A DNA stretch of 64,000 nucleotides from an uncultured Gammaproteobacteria bacterium (GTDB lineage Bacteria > Patescibacteriota > Patescibacteriia > Magasanikbacterales > GWA2-37-8). This document shows, one piece after another, positions 32,171 through 46,182 of this stretch; position 1 is the stretch's first letter, and each line of letters opens with the position of its first letter. Under the pieces are notes generated by a model that made no database searches, was not told where the DNA came from, and was given only the letters and a program-made list of their open reading frames with translations. A program made the position numbers and the translations under genes. The stretch lies in contig CAZXML010000003.1 of assembly GCA_964641245.1 (NCBI GenBank), forward strand, positions 17,395 through 81,394, read 5' to 3'.

Positions 32171-32534
32171 TGTCATCCTGAATGAAATGAAGGATCTCTG
32201 TCTTGTCCAATTAACTGATTATACAAGTCCTGCCATCTAAAATTTTGTTTTGTTATGATTTCCACTTTTCTATTACGCTTCCAGCCTTTCAATTCTTTTT
32301 CTCTTTTAATAGCATCATTTATATTAAAAAAGTGTTCATAATATACCAATTTTTTACACTTATATTTTTTCGTAAAGCCATCGATTATTCCGGCTCTGTG
32401 TTCTTCTACTCGTCTAATAAGGTCATTTGTCACTCCTATATAATACACAACTTACACTAGCCATTATGTATACATAATAATTGTGATTGGCCATAAGAAA
32501 CAGACAGAGATTCTTCGCTTTGCTCAGAATGACA
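32171..32534. mobile_element. Family B element, full-length form: its terminal inverted repeats enclose a GIY-YIG ORF
   Basis: Left arm tgtcatcctgaatgaaatgaaggatctctgtc (32171-32202) and right arm gacagagattcttcgctttgctcagaatgaca (32503-32534). These are the same arms that bound the about 80 bp MITE copies. The ORF stop TGA lies inside the left arm. The right arm is followed by a 3x atgggaca tandem. Confidence 0.6.
32173..32448 (-). CDS. GIY-YIG nuclease family protein (UPF0213/YhbQ-like), N-terminally truncated
   Basis: YYIGVTNDLIRRVEEHRAG = YxG...TxDLxRRxxEH core. GTG start with in-frame TAA two codons upstream. The first beta-strand (GIY) is missing. Confidence 0.65.
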   Translation of the reverse strand: MYYIGVTNDLIRRVEEHRAGIIDGFTKKYKCKKLVYYEHFFNINDAIKREKELKGWKRNRKVEIITKQNFRWQDLYNQLIGQDRDPSFHSG

Positions 32535-32578: not shown

Positions 32579-33934
32579 CTAAACGACTTTCGCAAATATA
32601 CATTTCAAATACTCCCCTTCGGTAAAAGCCACCAATTCCGGATGGTCTATGCCGTGGGTATAGGTTTCCAAAACCTGCAAAGTCTGGCGCGCCCGGCCGG
32701 CTGATTCGGATAACATATATCTAAAATCAGATAAAGTAACGTGGGCCGAACAAGAGGCTGTAATCAGTACGCCACCTGGTGATAATAATCGTAAAGACGC
32801 TTCGTTTATTTTTTTATAACCAATTAATCCTTCCTGAACTTTGCGCCTGTCTTTTACAAAGGCCGGCGGATCCAGGATGATGATGTCAAATTGACTTGAA
32901 CCTGACCTCACCCTGCCCTCTCCTCGCAGGAGAGGATTTATCGACTCCTTCTCCTTTGAGGAGAAGGTTGGGATGAGGTCTGGATTATTCAAATACTGCT
33001 TCACATCCCCGCAAATAAATTCGCATTTTTTTAAATCTAATTTATTAAGTTTTACGTTTTCTTGGGCCAATTCCAAGGCGCTCTGAGAAGAATCCACGCT
33101 AATCACATGCTTGGCTCCCCCGCCCAAAGCATAGACGCTAAACCCGCCGGAATAAGAAAAACAGTTCAAAACATTTTTATCTTCCGCGTATTTCATCAAC
33201 GCCTGTCTTTTATCGCGCTGGTCCAGAAAAAAACCGGTTTTTTGCCCGCCAATCACATCCACCCAGAACTTAAATCCGTTTTCAATAATTTTTATTCTCT
33301 CAGGCACTTTGCCATACAATAGGCCTGCGAGCGCTGTTTTATTTGTCATTCCGACGTCGAAGGAGGAATCTCTGTCTGGTTGTTTCGCGGAAGGGTGAGA
33401 CAGAGATCCCTCGTCGGCTACGGCCTCGCTCGGGATGACAATGTGCCGCTTAAGCCTCTGCGCCACATCCGATCTTTCATAAATACCGGTTGGTTTTAAG
33501 ATTTTTTTTAAGGCGTCAACGATTTTATCTTTCCACACTTCCATGCCCTGCGTATGAAACTGCAACACCAAATAATCCGCGTATTTGTCTACAATCAACC
33601 CGGGCAACAAATCGTTTTCACTGTGAACCATGCGGTAAGAATCCGTATTTTTACTAGCCACAAAATTCTTTCTGATGGCATAGGCCTGATTAATTCTTTT
33701 TTCAAAAAATTTGTCATCCACCGTTTCCTGTTCGTCCCAACTCCAAAGCCGCACCGCTATTTGCGAATAAGAATTAAAATATCCCTGCGCCAGAAATTGA
33801 CCTTCTTCGTTTACCAAAATCACCGCTTCGCCGCTTTTTAGGCCTTCGGGAATCTGTTTGAGCGCGCCAGAAAATACCCACGGGTGACGGCCAAGGATAG
33901 GACCAATTCTTTGTTTTTGAACAACCAACTTCAT
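32579..33934 (-). CDS. rlmI: 23S rRNA m5C methyltransferase RlmI-like (PUA + class I MTase) with two in-frame palindromic-repeat insertions
   Basis: Start MKLVVQKQRIGPILGRHPWVF. FDIIILDPPAF and SAM-binding GGFS motifs. Insertions at 32903-32979 and 33344-33440. Confidence 0.75.
   Translation of the reverse strand: MKLVVQKQRIGPILGRHPWVFSGALKQIPEGLKSGEAVILVNEEGQFLAQGYFNSYSQIAVRLWSWDEQETVDDKFFEKRINQAYAIRKNFVASKNTDSYRMVHSENDLLPGLIVDKYADYLVLQFHTQGMEVWKDKIVDALKKILKPTGIYERSDVAQRLKRHIVIPSEAVADEGSLSHPSAKQPDRDSSFDVGMTNKTALAGLLYGKVPERIKIIENGFKFWVDVIGGQKTGFFLDQRDKRQALMKYAEDKNVLNCFSYSGGFSVYALGGGAKHVISVDSSQSALELAQENVKLNKLDLKKCEFICGDVKQYLNNPDLIPTFSSKEKESINPLLRGEGRVRSGSSQFDIIILDPPAFVKDRRKVQEGLIGYKKINEASLRLLSPGGVLITASCSAHVTLSDFRYMLSESAGRARQTLQVLETYTHGIDHPELVAFTEGEYLKCIFAKVV
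32903..32979. repeat. Family F palindromic element inside rlmI (in-frame)
   Basis: gacctcaccctgccctctcctcgcaggagagg ... ctccttctcctttgaggagaaggttgggatgaggtc. Encodes PTFSSKEKESINPLLRGEGRVRSGSS. Confidence 0.75.
33344..33440. repeat. Family B2 palindromic element inside rlmI (in-frame)
   Basis: tgtcattccgacgtcgaaggaggaatctctgtc ... gagacagagatccctcgtcggc...cgggatgaca. Related copy at 35529-35624. Confidence 0.8.
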
Positions 33935-34019
33935 CATGATAAATGGATTATTAATAATTGAGAGTATACCAAACAAAAACACCCAGCGCAATGGCCGGGT
34001 GTTTTCTTAATATAAATTT

Positions 34020-35384: not shown

Positions 35385-35528
35385 AGATTAAAAGTTTAAT
35401 CCCAAATTAAGTTTGGGAATGAGATTTTTAAAGTTGATAATATTATAACACATAATTAAAAGCGCTACCAAATACAACCTGTGGATAACTAACAAAAAAG
35501 ACCCGCCGAGCGGCGGGTCTTTTTTGTT

Positions 35529-35624
35529 TGTTATTCCGACAACGAAGGAGGAATCTCTGTCCTCTTCGCTTCGAAACCACCAGACAGAGATCCCTCGTCG
35601 GCGCGAGCCTCGCTCGGGATGACA
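35529..35624. repeat. Family B2 palindromic element
   Basis: ttattccgacaacgaaggaggaatctctgtc ... cagacagagatccctcgtcggcgcgagcctcgctcgggatgaca. Confidence 0.75.
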
Positions 35625-43517: not shown

Positions 43518-43625
43518 TACTTCGTCGTTCCTCCCCCTTTTAGGGGGAGGGCAGGGTGGGGGTATTTGTTCGTGGTACAACCGCCGATATACCCCTCTCT
43601 CTATCTCTCCCCTAAAAGGGGAGAG
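43515..43625. repeat. Two family E palindromic elements (ccccctttta ggggg / cccctctctctatctctcccctaaaaggggagag)
   Basis: Seen directly. Same family as 30687 and 45792. Confidence 0.8.
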
Positions 43626-43652
43626 AACCCCACCGAGTCCAGTCGGCTCTTA

Positions 43653-44228: not shown

Positions 44229-45323
44229 TTGCTAATTAATCCTATGAACAACAAATATAAAGATCTACAATCCAAATTCGCCAAGCTGGAAGCCGATTTG
44301 CAAAATCCGGTTGTGCTTGGTGATTCCAGAAAAGTAAAAGAAGTTGCCCAGGAATATAATGAATTAAAACCGGCCATGGAAAAAATAAAAGAACTGGCCG
44401 GAGTGGAAAACAGCATCGCGGAAACGGAACTGATTATAAAAGGCAATGATGAAGAAATGAAAGAAATGGCCACTGCAGAAATTGATGATTTAGAAATTAA
44501 GAAATTAAATTTAGAAAAAGAGCTGGACGAAATGACCCGTCCGCAGGATCCGTTTGATAAAAAAAATGTGATTGTGGAAATACGCGCCGGCGTGGGTGGA
44601 GATGAGTCCGCTCTTTTTGCCGCGGATTTGTACCGCATGTACAGCCGTTATGCCGAAAATAAAGGCTGGAAAGTAAACACGCTGGATTCAAACAAAATCG
44701 GCATCGGCGGTTTCAAAGAAATTATATTTTCCATAAAAGGCAAGAACGTCTACAAAGATTTAAAATATGAAATGGGCGTGCACCGCGTGCAAAGAGTTCC
44801 GGACACGGAAAAAGCCGGACGCATTCATACCTCCACCGCCACGGTAGCTGTGATGCCGGAAATAGAAGAAACCGAATTTAAAATTGATCCAAAAGATTTG
44901 CGCATAGACACTATGACAGCCGGCGGACACGGCGGTCAAAGCGTGAACACCACTTACTCTGCCGTGCGCCTTGTGTATATTCCAACCGGCATGATCGTGC
45001 AGTGCCAAGACGAACGTTCACAAACCGCCAACCGCGAAAAAGCCATGGCCGTAATGCGCTCCCGCTTGTTTGCCATAGAACAGGAAAGAAAAATGAAAGA
45101 ACTGACCGAAAAAAGGCGCGCCCAAATTGGCAGCGGCGACAGAAGCGAAAAAATCCGCACCTACAATTTCCCTCAAGATCGCATTACCGACCACCGCATT
45201 CACCAAAGCTGGAACAGCATCCCCCGAATTTTAGACGGCGAACTAGAACCGATTATTTTGGCCGTGCGCGCGGCGGATTACGCGGGGTTGGATTATTCCG
45301 GCACGGATGAAGACGAAGAATAA
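44229..45323 (+). CDS. prfA: Peptide chain release factor 1
   Basis: GGQ motif ([18 protein letters not shown]). Followed by prmC. The true start may be MNNKYKDLQ at 44247. Confidence 0.85.
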
Positions 45324-46182
45324 TATGTTGGATTTTGATTTGCTAAAGGCGCATGCCATAAAAAAACCAAAAGAATTTTTATACTCTCATCCCGAATATC
45401 GTTTATCAGTTTGGCAAAAACTGCGTTTAAAATATTTTCTCTCCCTGCGCAAAAAGGGCTATTCCGTAGCCGTCATTACCAAGCATAAAGAATTTTACGG
45501 CTTGGATTTTTTTGTGAATAAACACGTTTTAATCCCCCGCCCCGACACCGAGTTGATGGTGGCAGAAGCGATCGAAGAAATTAAAAAAAATGATAAGATA
45601 ATTTTAGTTGATGTTGGTACCGGAAGCGGGTGCATACCAATTTCTATTTTAAAAAATATACCAAACCAAATACAAACATTTGCGACCGATATTTCGAACG
45701 CGGCTTTGCGAGTAGCGAAAAAAAATGCCCGAATACATAATGTGAACATTAAATTTTTCCACGGTAACTTGCTTGAACCAATTTTCAAAAACCCCTCTCT
45801 CTGTCTCTCCCCTTATAGGGGAGAGAGGAACGAACTCCTCTCTGTAGTTCCCTCCCCTATAAGGGGAGGGGCGAAGGGTGGGGTTTTCATCACCGCCAAC
45901 CTCCCCTACCTTACCAAACAACAATTTCAATCCGAACCGAGCATTCAAAAAGAACCAAAAATCGCACTCACGGCAAAAAATAACGGCTTGGCTTTATACG
46001 AAGAATTATTTAATCAAATAAAAAATGCCGGTCTGACAGCAACTATACTTACAGAAATCGACCCTTCTCAAACCGATGCAATCTCCCAACTTATAAACCA
46101 ATATCTTCCCGGCTCAAAAATTGAAATAAAAAAAGACCTCGCCGGGCGAGATCGTTTAGTAAAAATTGTCATGTCATCCTGA
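45307..46182 (+). CDS. prmC: Release factor glutamine methyltransferase PrmC/HemK with in-frame repeat insertion
   Basis: VLIPRPDTE and VGTGSGCI motifs. The NPPY box reads NLPY. A 30-aa insertion ([30 protein letters not shown]) is encoded by a family E palindrome. The stop codon is supplied by a family A repeat. Confidence 0.8.
45792..45886. repeat. Family E palindromic element pair inside prmC (in-frame)
   Basis: cccctctctctgtctctccccttataggggagagg ... ttccctcccctataaggggaggggcgaagggtgggg. Confidence 0.8.

Follow-up and report, generated by a model that had tools for sequence, protein, structure and literature searches.

Two hairpin repeats read in frame within an rlmI-family methyltransferase gene of a Magasanikbacteria-like bacterium, probably mobile and lodged in permissive loops

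To our knowledge, Rickettsia is the textbook, and almost the sole, case of selfish palindromic DNA found routinely inside protein-coding genes. Here we describe an RlmI-family methyltransferase gene that is read in frame through two palindromic repeats, designated B2 and F, in a 64,000-nucleotide stretch of Patescibacteria DNA (assembly GCA_964641245.1, contig CAZXML010000003.1, positions 17,395 to 81,394; hereafter the window). Among described systems, the Rickettsia palindromic elements (RPEs) are in-frame palindromic repeats in housekeeping genes (Ogata et al. 2000 Science 290:347 and Ogata et al. 2002, as summarised in PMC10969869 and PMC3184786). Intragenic in-frame fusions are also on record for the MITEs (miniature transposable elements with inverted repeats) ERIC, BOX, RUP, Correia and Nezha (PMC3184786, PMC10969869). 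The analysis in this study makes it quite likely that B2 and F belong to two unrelated families of mobile hairpin repeats, which landed in two permissive loops of RlmI and are both translated. It is an RPE-like phenomenon in a new phylum, with new repeat families and a likely nuclease partner.

The elements resemble the RPEs in that several short palindromic families are dispersed in a small genome and lie in frame in unrelated housekeeping genes. The inserts found here (in rlmI, in prmC and twice in tgt) are at positions that, by prediction, are compatible with the host fold, as in the RPE case. They differ from the RPEs in their occurrence in Patescibacteria, in sequence, which is probably unrelated, and in length (83-97 bp here against ~105-150 bp). 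Homology with the RPEs is unlikely from the different phylum and length, and the two were set apart by their descriptions. Unlike the RPEs, the repeats have no dedicated peptide frame, F being read in two frames, and they carry two local hairpins inside the terminal inverted repeats. One of the families has arms in common with GIY-YIG nuclease genes, and different families fill the same two loops of one gene across orthologues, with evidence of exchange between lineages. These features also set them apart from the RPEs.

The minus-strand open reading frame (ORF) 32579..33991 stays open across both elements, as had been stated in the initial annotation of this DNA, and its likely start is the ATG at 33937 or 33934 (Table 1; 451 aa in the NCBI call). 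The product has the domain layout of the RlmI family of 23S rRNA m5C1962 methyltransferases, in which a PUA-like domain at the N-terminus (PF17785 PUA_3, 2e-18) is followed by a class I S-adenosylmethionine (SAM) methyltransferase domain (PF10672 Methyltrans_SAM, 1.1e-27). The top PDB match in a phmmer search was E. coli RlmI (3c0k, 1.7e-89), and in the alignment with 3c0k the VLNCFSYSGGF, DPPAF and SCS motifs are intact. The AlphaFold2 (AF2) model, which was built from 46 orthologues, has the RlmI fold over the whole chain, with a target-normalised template-modelling (TM) score of 0.89 against 3c0k_A. The protein scored 342.7 bits with the NCBIfam RlmI equivalog NF011707, the cut-off of which is 712 bits, because the insertions cut the match into three stretches. 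The earlier naming of the gene as rlmI was therefore kept at the level of the family, and the exact target base was left off. The identical protein is present in two independent assemblies, on a 97-kb NCBI contig and a 21.6-kb JGI contig.

Table 1. Coordinates of the host gene, its two inserted elements and related features of the window
Feature	Position	Strand	Description
Host rlmI-family gene	32579..33937	-	class I SAM-dependent rRNA (cytosine-C5) methyltransferase; 452 aa from ATG 33937
B2	33344..33440	-	TGTCAT...ATGACA palindrome; 97 bp; in frame in rlmI, site 1
B2 arm 1	33344..33377	+	local hairpin TGTC-ATTCC-loop-GGAAT-CTCTGTCT
B2 arm 2	33398..33440	+	AGACAGAG, then local hairpin ATCCC/GGGAT, then GACA
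F	32901..32983	-	terminal inverted repeats and two CT/GA hairpins; 83 bp; in frame in rlmI, site 2
GIY-YIG-bearing TGTCAT element	32171..32534	-	directly downstream of rlmI; ORF 32173-32448; arms 32171-32204 and 32503-32534
Intergenic B2 sibling	35529..35624	+	arms ~90% identical to B2; spacer unrelated
Intergenic F-like copy	43527..43628		unit GGAGGGCAGGGTG(G/A)GG in common with F
F-like double hairpin in prmC/hemK (ORF 45307-46182)	45788..45887	+	in frame, just before NPPY-type motif IV

Both segments proved to be insertions relative to the known RlmI structures and to the nearest orthologue. The alignment to 3c0k, 2as0 and 1wxw breaks at query residues 168->205 at site 1, which holds B2, and at 316->344 at site 2, which holds F. 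The nearest orthologue, P0005, is 394 aa long and lacks both insertions; it is 91% identical to the window RlmI outside the inserts, and the two genes are grouped at 97% bootstrap. Site 1 is the junction of the central and methyltransferase domains, after the final helix of the former and ahead of the first strand of the latter; here 46 residues of the window protein stand against RTRGIEGAVKQA in P0005, a net gain of 34 aa. Site 2 is three residues ahead of strand beta4 and motif IV (FDIIILDPPAF), and 33 residues there stand against FEQQQARVN in P0005, a net gain of 24 aa. The two gains together make up the 58-aa difference in length between the window RlmI and P0005.

In the frame of rlmI, B2 reads as (I)VIPSEAVADEGSLSHPSAKQPDRDSSFDVGMT and F as PDLIPTFSSKEKESINPLLRGEGRVRSG, and the peptides at the element/host junctions are ...LKRHIVIPSEAVADEGSLSHPSAK... 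and ...ESINPLLR / GEGR.... The length of 97 bp first assigned to B2 was found to be exact. Its inner arms (33363-77/33398-412) are 93% complementary, and the coding strand, folded as single-stranded DNA, has a z-score of -4.65 against shuffles. The 77 bp first assigned to F correspond to the inner part of a full element of 83 bp, which is closed by a terminal inverted repeat of 10-13 bp with the arms CCTGACCTCACCC/GGATGAGGTCTGG. Both inner hairpins of F (32917-35 and 32947-67) are perfect, and its fold z-score is -6.3. The G+C content is 57% in B2 and F against 42% in the remainder of rlmI, and this jump supports a foreign origin of both.

In the AF2 model, the core has a predicted local distance difference test (pLDDT) score of ~90, and long stretches below 50 are limited to residues 157-201, around B2, and residues 322-346, which correspond to F. 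Both inserts are predicted to be disordered surface loops, and the remainder of the RlmI fold is modelled with confidence. The strands of Rossmann-type methyltransferases bind cofactor and substrate at their C-terminal ends. The site 2 loop enters the N-terminal end of beta4 and therefore points away from the SAM/catalytic site. The initial annotation had regarded the two segments as loops added in frame, which agrees with the predicted disorder, the intact fold and the absence of both from P0005. The changes are, however, not purely additive, since 9-12 ancestral loop residues at both sites are no longer recognisable in the window gene. This fact indicates not a clean addition but an insertion at which the loop was replaced or diverged rapidly.

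It had also been proposed that copies neutral to the reading frame are selected, or that insertions at the surface are tolerated. Three of the six frames are free of stops in B2 and three of six in F, and in the intergenic copies the number ranges from one to four. Of length-matched segments drawn at random from this sequence, about one third are open. The possibility that the elements are built to be frame-neutral was rejected, as only half of the frames are open and intergenic copies go down to one. The elements thus do not seem to be designed for coding; random insertion would leave the frame intact in a considerable minority of cases, and these would be the ones retained by selection. Tolerance at the surface combined with a selective filter fits these observations better.

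The in-frame, stop-free reading is kept across the elements in the window gene and in every orthologue examined at the DNA level. Such an open frame would be needless if the segments were removed before the mature protein is formed, whether by RNA excision, by intein-like splicing or by translational bypassing. Strong hairpins in a coding sequence do recall bypass elements and intervening sequences, and candidate-phyla bacteria are known to have intervening sequences in their rRNA genes. The sizes of 83-97 nt and 24-34 aa are, however, far below those of group I/II introns or inteins, and the junction residues of inteins are absent. Rfam searches, both at the gathering threshold and permissive, gave no match over threshold, and the sub-threshold matches were generic hairpins such as microRNA precursors. 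We regard removal as highly improbable.

The claim that the two repeats are of different families is confirmed by dispersed copies of each at other loci. B2 has an intergenic sibling in the window (Table 1), and no such match is expected in shuffles. Its family is recognised by the TGTCAT arm, of which there are 36 in the window (for example at 1756, 6643, 22089, 25499, 47335, 56049 and 63668). All 36 arms form perfect local hairpins that follow the pattern TGTC-ATxxx-loop-x'x'x'AT-C(T/C)C, with a stem of a kind found at 5.4% of control sites. The stems occur as six compensated variants, namely ATCCT/AGGAT (12), ATGCT/AGCAT (8), ATTCT/AGAAT (5), ATTCC/GGAAT (5), ATTGC/GCAAT (4) and ATCCC/GGGAT (2). 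The two arms of one element mostly differ in stem variant; hence it is the local hairpin, rather than the long palindrome, that is conserved as a unit. These differences suggest that distinct left and right ends are recognised as structured DNA. Most copies of the family in the window are intergenic, and among those listed only the rlmI copy is inside a recognised gene. The sibling of B2 adjoins a terminator-like hairpin (35485-35534, near-perfect, 24 bp) and starts inside its 3' arm. Its terminus is TGTTAT and not TGTCAT, as if it had been inserted at or into this hairpin.

The window contains no close second copy of F, only F-like copies, which have in common with F the unit GGAG(A/G)GGCAGGGTG(A/G)GG. 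One of these is the third in-frame insertion of the window. It is read as 33 residues in prmC, the release-factor methyltransferase gene. When the product is aligned with T. maritima HemK, there is a break at query 159->195, directly ahead of the NPPY-type motif IV, in a loop that is topologically equivalent to site 2 of RlmI. The insertions of PrmC and RlmI in an equivalent loop support a permissive position in the methyltransferase fold.

Close copies of F were found in other contigs by a metagenome scan with one F hairpin. Locus L089 has two intergenic copies and L091 a solo half-unit, while L090 (2150-3568, minus strand) is a tgt (tRNA-guanine transglycosylase) gene with two copies in frame, both of them insertions relative to Z. 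mobilis Tgt. The reading frame of F differs between the two genes: PDLIPTFSSKEKE..PLLRGEGRVRSG in rlmI against RPHPNLLLKGEGN..RRGQGEVR in tgt. The copies of L089, L090 and rlmI align over 83 nt without gaps, and the copies outside rlmI are as close to those in rlmI as the latter are to one another. Between the two F copies of L089 (464-1157) lies an ORF for a DUF559/Vsr-like endonuclease (697-1068), a possible, unverified partner of the F family.

Both sites are naturally length-variable in the family, and one may ask whether ordinary loop expansion by small indels, with incidental palindromy, or an assembly artefact could account for the two segments. This is scarcely credible in view of the near-identical copies at unrelated loci and contigs, the fold z-scores of -4.7 and -6.3, the G+C jump and the presence of the same sequence in independent assemblies.

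The same two sites are occupied repeatedly in related genes. We surveyed the 120 closest orthologues, from Patescibacteria and mostly labelled Magasanikbacteria, against a baseline of 394 aa, counting gains of at least 8 aa as insertions. An insertion was present at site 1 in 34 of them, at site 2 in 21, at both in 12 and at either in 43, and only three internal insertions lay away from both sites. The inserted peptides bear the signatures of several repeats: TGTCAT arms are read as VILSEAKNPL...RDPS..QDD and VIPSE... in one frame and as CHCEE... in another, and IPNQVGND and peptides of CT/GA hairpins (PLLRGEGRVRS, PPLQGEGQ, GGARGGG) also occur. Palindromes at both sites were confirmed in the DNA of the orthologues L010 and L011. 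The content of the loops is wholly different between close relatives, some of which have no insertion at all.

Two further observations concern the position and the flanks of the insertions. P0059 and P0062 have a third, rare insertion point near residue 95 of the RlmI core, with the F-like peptides TPSPLQSPSGRG and FATPATPVALGDHPSSGRRGQR. In site 1 alleles with an insertion, the ancestral RTRGIEG is nearly always replaced by RDR(K/N/Q/D)R, whatever repeat family follows. This flank could reflect a common cassette origin or a convergent change.

Protein identity is 83-91% across the rlmI comparisons and 83-86% between F-carrying genes, against 51-60% at third codon positions, and by sequence comparison the rlmI-family host gene is evidently under purifying selection. 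With two insertions in a single gene, and three residues between one of them and motif IV, the gene might seem to be inactivated, a young pseudogene with its frame intact by chance; the reduced genomes of Patescibacteria tolerate gene loss. This is very unlikely. The 452-codon frame is intact, the SAM-binding and catalytic motifs are all conserved and the modelled core is confident. In addition, the F alleles of four lineages combine strong amino-acid conservation with saturated synonymous sites.

The distribution of the elements was compared with trees of rlmI alone (neighbour joining, 300 bootstraps, 357 columns outside the loops). The four F-carrying genes were monophyletic in none of the 300 bootstraps. 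The supported groups were P0001 with P0005 (97%), P0002 with P0008 (100%) and P0003 with P0013 and P0018 (93%), and the nearest neighbours of the orthologues differ between segments of the gene. F stands at one junction in all four carriers, with AATAAT in common on the left. Across lineages, identical residues are encoded by the same codon in 84-92% of cases inside F against 53-63% elsewhere (one-sided Fisher p 0.0002-0.02), and third-position identity is 82-93% in F, well above the range given for the host gene. The initial annotation had named close relatives with the same peptide segments and no palindrome as a case that would speak against it. The orthologues with the same F peptide (L004, L006 and L008) all keep the nucleotide palindrome too, better than they keep their synonymous sites.

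A mosaic structure is directly visible in one pair of loci. L008 (P0002) and L093 (P0008) are ~100% identical over ~840 aligned nt. These begin in the end of the upstream gene and run through the spacer into rlmI, of which the 5' ~650 nt, site 1 among them, are included. Around site 2, the identity is ~70-85% over ~400 nt, and further downstream it is 90-95%. At site 2 itself, one locus has F and the other a TGTCAT-type element, and the divergent stretch of P0002 is closest to P0010 and P0004, from another clade. At site 1, L097 (P0006) and L004 (P0003) have one TGTCATTGCGA element at one junction with an identical arm of 45 nt, as seen in the DNA alignment; protein-level MAFFT misaligned these two elements. 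L097 and L004 fall in different clades, each supported at 93%, and the insertion-free sister L096 retains RTRGIEGVEKQV.

Vertical inheritance of one ancestral insertion was rejected, since in sister genes the loop is the ancestral one or holds a different element. The distribution of the carriers contradicts the gene tree and, together with the L008/L093 mosaic, speaks for exchange by recombination. Most simply, insertion-bearing loop alleles, each an element with a few flanking codons, would have been exchanged by homologous recombination, and the content of the loops would have been replaced over time. We infer that the alleles spread by recombination and not by re-insertion. Among the four carrier lineages, no co-conversion tract was found around F, and conservation ends at the borders of the element save for the AATAAT on the left. 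The recent transfer of a whole segment can be seen directly only in the L008/L093 pair.

A possible source of mobility was found directly downstream of rlmI, where a TGTCAT element bears a GIY-YIG nuclease ORF (PF01541, 2.6e-11; Table 1). The element is present at this position in L008 and absent in L093 and L006. Arms bracket the GIY-YIG ORF in all four independent loci examined (the window, L008, L098 and L099). In L098 and L099, which are unrelated loci, TGTCAT-hairpin-CTCTGTC stands upstream of the ORF and GACAGAG-hairpin-ATGACA downstream. Arm 2 of B2 is identical at 37 of 37 positions to an arm beside the gene in L098, and the 3' arm of that gene has its match in the equivalent arm of the B2 sibling. 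Among the 120 closest GIY-YIG homologues, at least 20 have a C-terminal tail that runs into an arm, such as ...DRDPSFHSG; these tails include DRDPSSARASLGMT, a peptide that B2 and its sibling encode in their arm. Since the arms of B2 are the same as those that bracket GIY-YIG genes, B2 is best described as a putative ORF-less miniature (arm-spacer-arm) of a hairpin element bearing a ~97-aa GIY-YIG protein. We infer that the GIY-YIG nuclease mobilises the arms.

Two of these loci have further features. Downstream of the GIY-YIG gene in L098 (1866-1990), four tandem copies of a truncated arm of 29 nt, TGTCATCCCGAGCGAGGCCGTAGCCAGAC, are present, showing that the arms can also amplify head to tail. 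In L099 (1501-2165), a Pif1-type helicase gene is next to two GIY-YIG genes that belong to different subfamilies and are arranged back to back; the first of these has a stack of three TGTCAT arms upstream.

This arrangement resembles that of REPs (repetitive, extragenic and palindromic sequences), their mosaic arrays (BIME) and the associated RAYT transposases. In both cases, hairpin units are highly multiplied, stand singly or as inverted pairs and show compensated stem changes, and a small nuclease gene is itself bracketed by the repeats. The nuclease here is, however, a ~97-aa GIY-YIG protein and not a transposase of the HUH/Y1 type. The bracketed ORF is GIY-YIG and not a HUH (Y1) transposase in a window that was not exhaustively searched for Y1 transposases. 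In addition, REPs are extragenic by definition, whereas the elements described here enter coding sequences. The likeness to MITEs lies in the small size, the many copies, the lack of an ORF, the terminal inverted repeats and the occasional in-frame fusion to host ORFs. MITEs are also derived from a longer element with the same ends, as the identity of the arms of B2 and of the GIY-YIG loci would suggest here. The differences from MITEs are that no target-site duplication is seen, that the partner gene is not an IS-type transposase and that a few host codons are replaced.

GIY-YIG homing endonucleases, free-standing or intron-encoded, such as I-TevI and the T4 Seg proteins, provide the third comparison. 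They have in common with the present case the GIY-YIG catalytic domain, a patchy presence between close relatives and the mosaic flanks that are expected from gene-conversion repair. Unlike I-TevI and Seg, the protein here is a bare catalytic domain with no DNA-binding domain, it is flanked by hairpin arms, and the arms multiply alone. In the literature covered by our searches, no such repeats are described in Patescibacteria or the candidate phyla radiation, and no GIY-YIG genes bracketed by multiplied hairpin arms. A tentative, and at present rather doubtful, proposal is that the TGTCAT arms and the ~97-aa GIY-YIG nuclease constitute an undescribed class of mobile element. Its miniatures would colonise coding sequences, and the breaks that it makes would drive homing-like conversion. 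Loop cassettes, each an element with flanking codons such as RDRKR, would in this way spread between lineages.

Several observations weigh against the interpretation of B2 and F as mobile repeats lodged in permissive loops, or against its extensions. The replacement of the 9-12 ancestral loop residues is unexpected from simple cut-and-paste, and no target-site duplication was seen at the B2 and F junctions in rlmI, in tgt or in the intergenic copies. No partner gene was found for F. The GIY-YIG copy of the window has a 2-nt deletion relative to L008, which splits off the N-terminal 19 codons (MANHNYYVYIMASVSCVLY); this copy is probably a pseudogene, as judged from its sequence. The translation of both inserts and the activity of the enzyme are deduced solely from the intact frame and motifs. 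The orthologues were collected by protein search, which would miss copies broken by out-of-frame elements. The evidence for exchange comes from single-gene trees and from metagenome contigs that may be strain chimeras. Several alleles, on the other hand, were recovered in two independent assemblies; the orthologues P0003, P0004 and P0008 are each among those found twice. Finally, the nucleotide conservation of F could also be due to selection on the hairpin itself, as DNA or as RNA, which would favour an exapted function.

The last point deserves separate consideration. According to this explanation, the insertions acquired a function, either as loops or as DNA/RNA hairpins, and have been kept by selection. 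The basic F peptide and the RDRKR flank might make contacts with rRNA or in ribosome assembly, or the hairpins might control the stability or the translation of the mRNA. Synonymous positions of F are more conserved than those of the host gene in four lineages, the site 1 insertion alleles have the basic RDR(K/N/Q)R flank in common, and about one third of the orthologues retain an insertion. The same nucleotide conservation is, however, seen in the intergenic copies of F and in the tgt copies, which are read in another frame; it is thus the DNA family that is conserved, and not the peptide. Furthermore, the loops are predicted to be disordered, and their content is wholly different between close relatives, including those free of insertions. 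Exaptation therefore seems improbable to us.

We accordingly prefer the interpretation in which B2 and F are mobile repeats, and its steps would be as follows. The elements would land in permissive loops of a Magasanikbacteria-like rlmI and be translated with the protein. With half of the six frames of each element free of stops, some insertions would keep the frame, and selection on the conserved rlmI would remove those that break the frame or the fold. The linker at site 1 and the loop at site 2 would tolerate extra disordered residues. The same two loops would thereby serve as landing pads with turnover, and loop alleles would pass between lineages by homologous recombination.

Behaviour of the RPE type is now seen in Patescibacteria with unrelated repeat families, and it is experimentally tractable. 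The dozens of orthologues with different elements in the same two loops amount to a natural map of insertion tolerance, and in PrmC, a second methyltransferase of class I, the loop that precedes beta4 is filled as well. The repeats also bear on annotation, as they inflate and fragment the annotations of metagenome-assembled genomes by giving rise to false tails, such as ...DRDPSFHSG, and to small ORFs that are equally spurious. The movement of alleles bears on the extent of recombination in uncultivated, reduced genomes. For the GIY-YIG family, which has thousands of homologues, the link to the arms suggests a role together with a testable mechanism of mobilisation. If a GIY-YIG counterpart of the REP/RAYT system is indeed present here, protein loops would be heritable and exchangeable landing pads, and thus a source of new protein segments.

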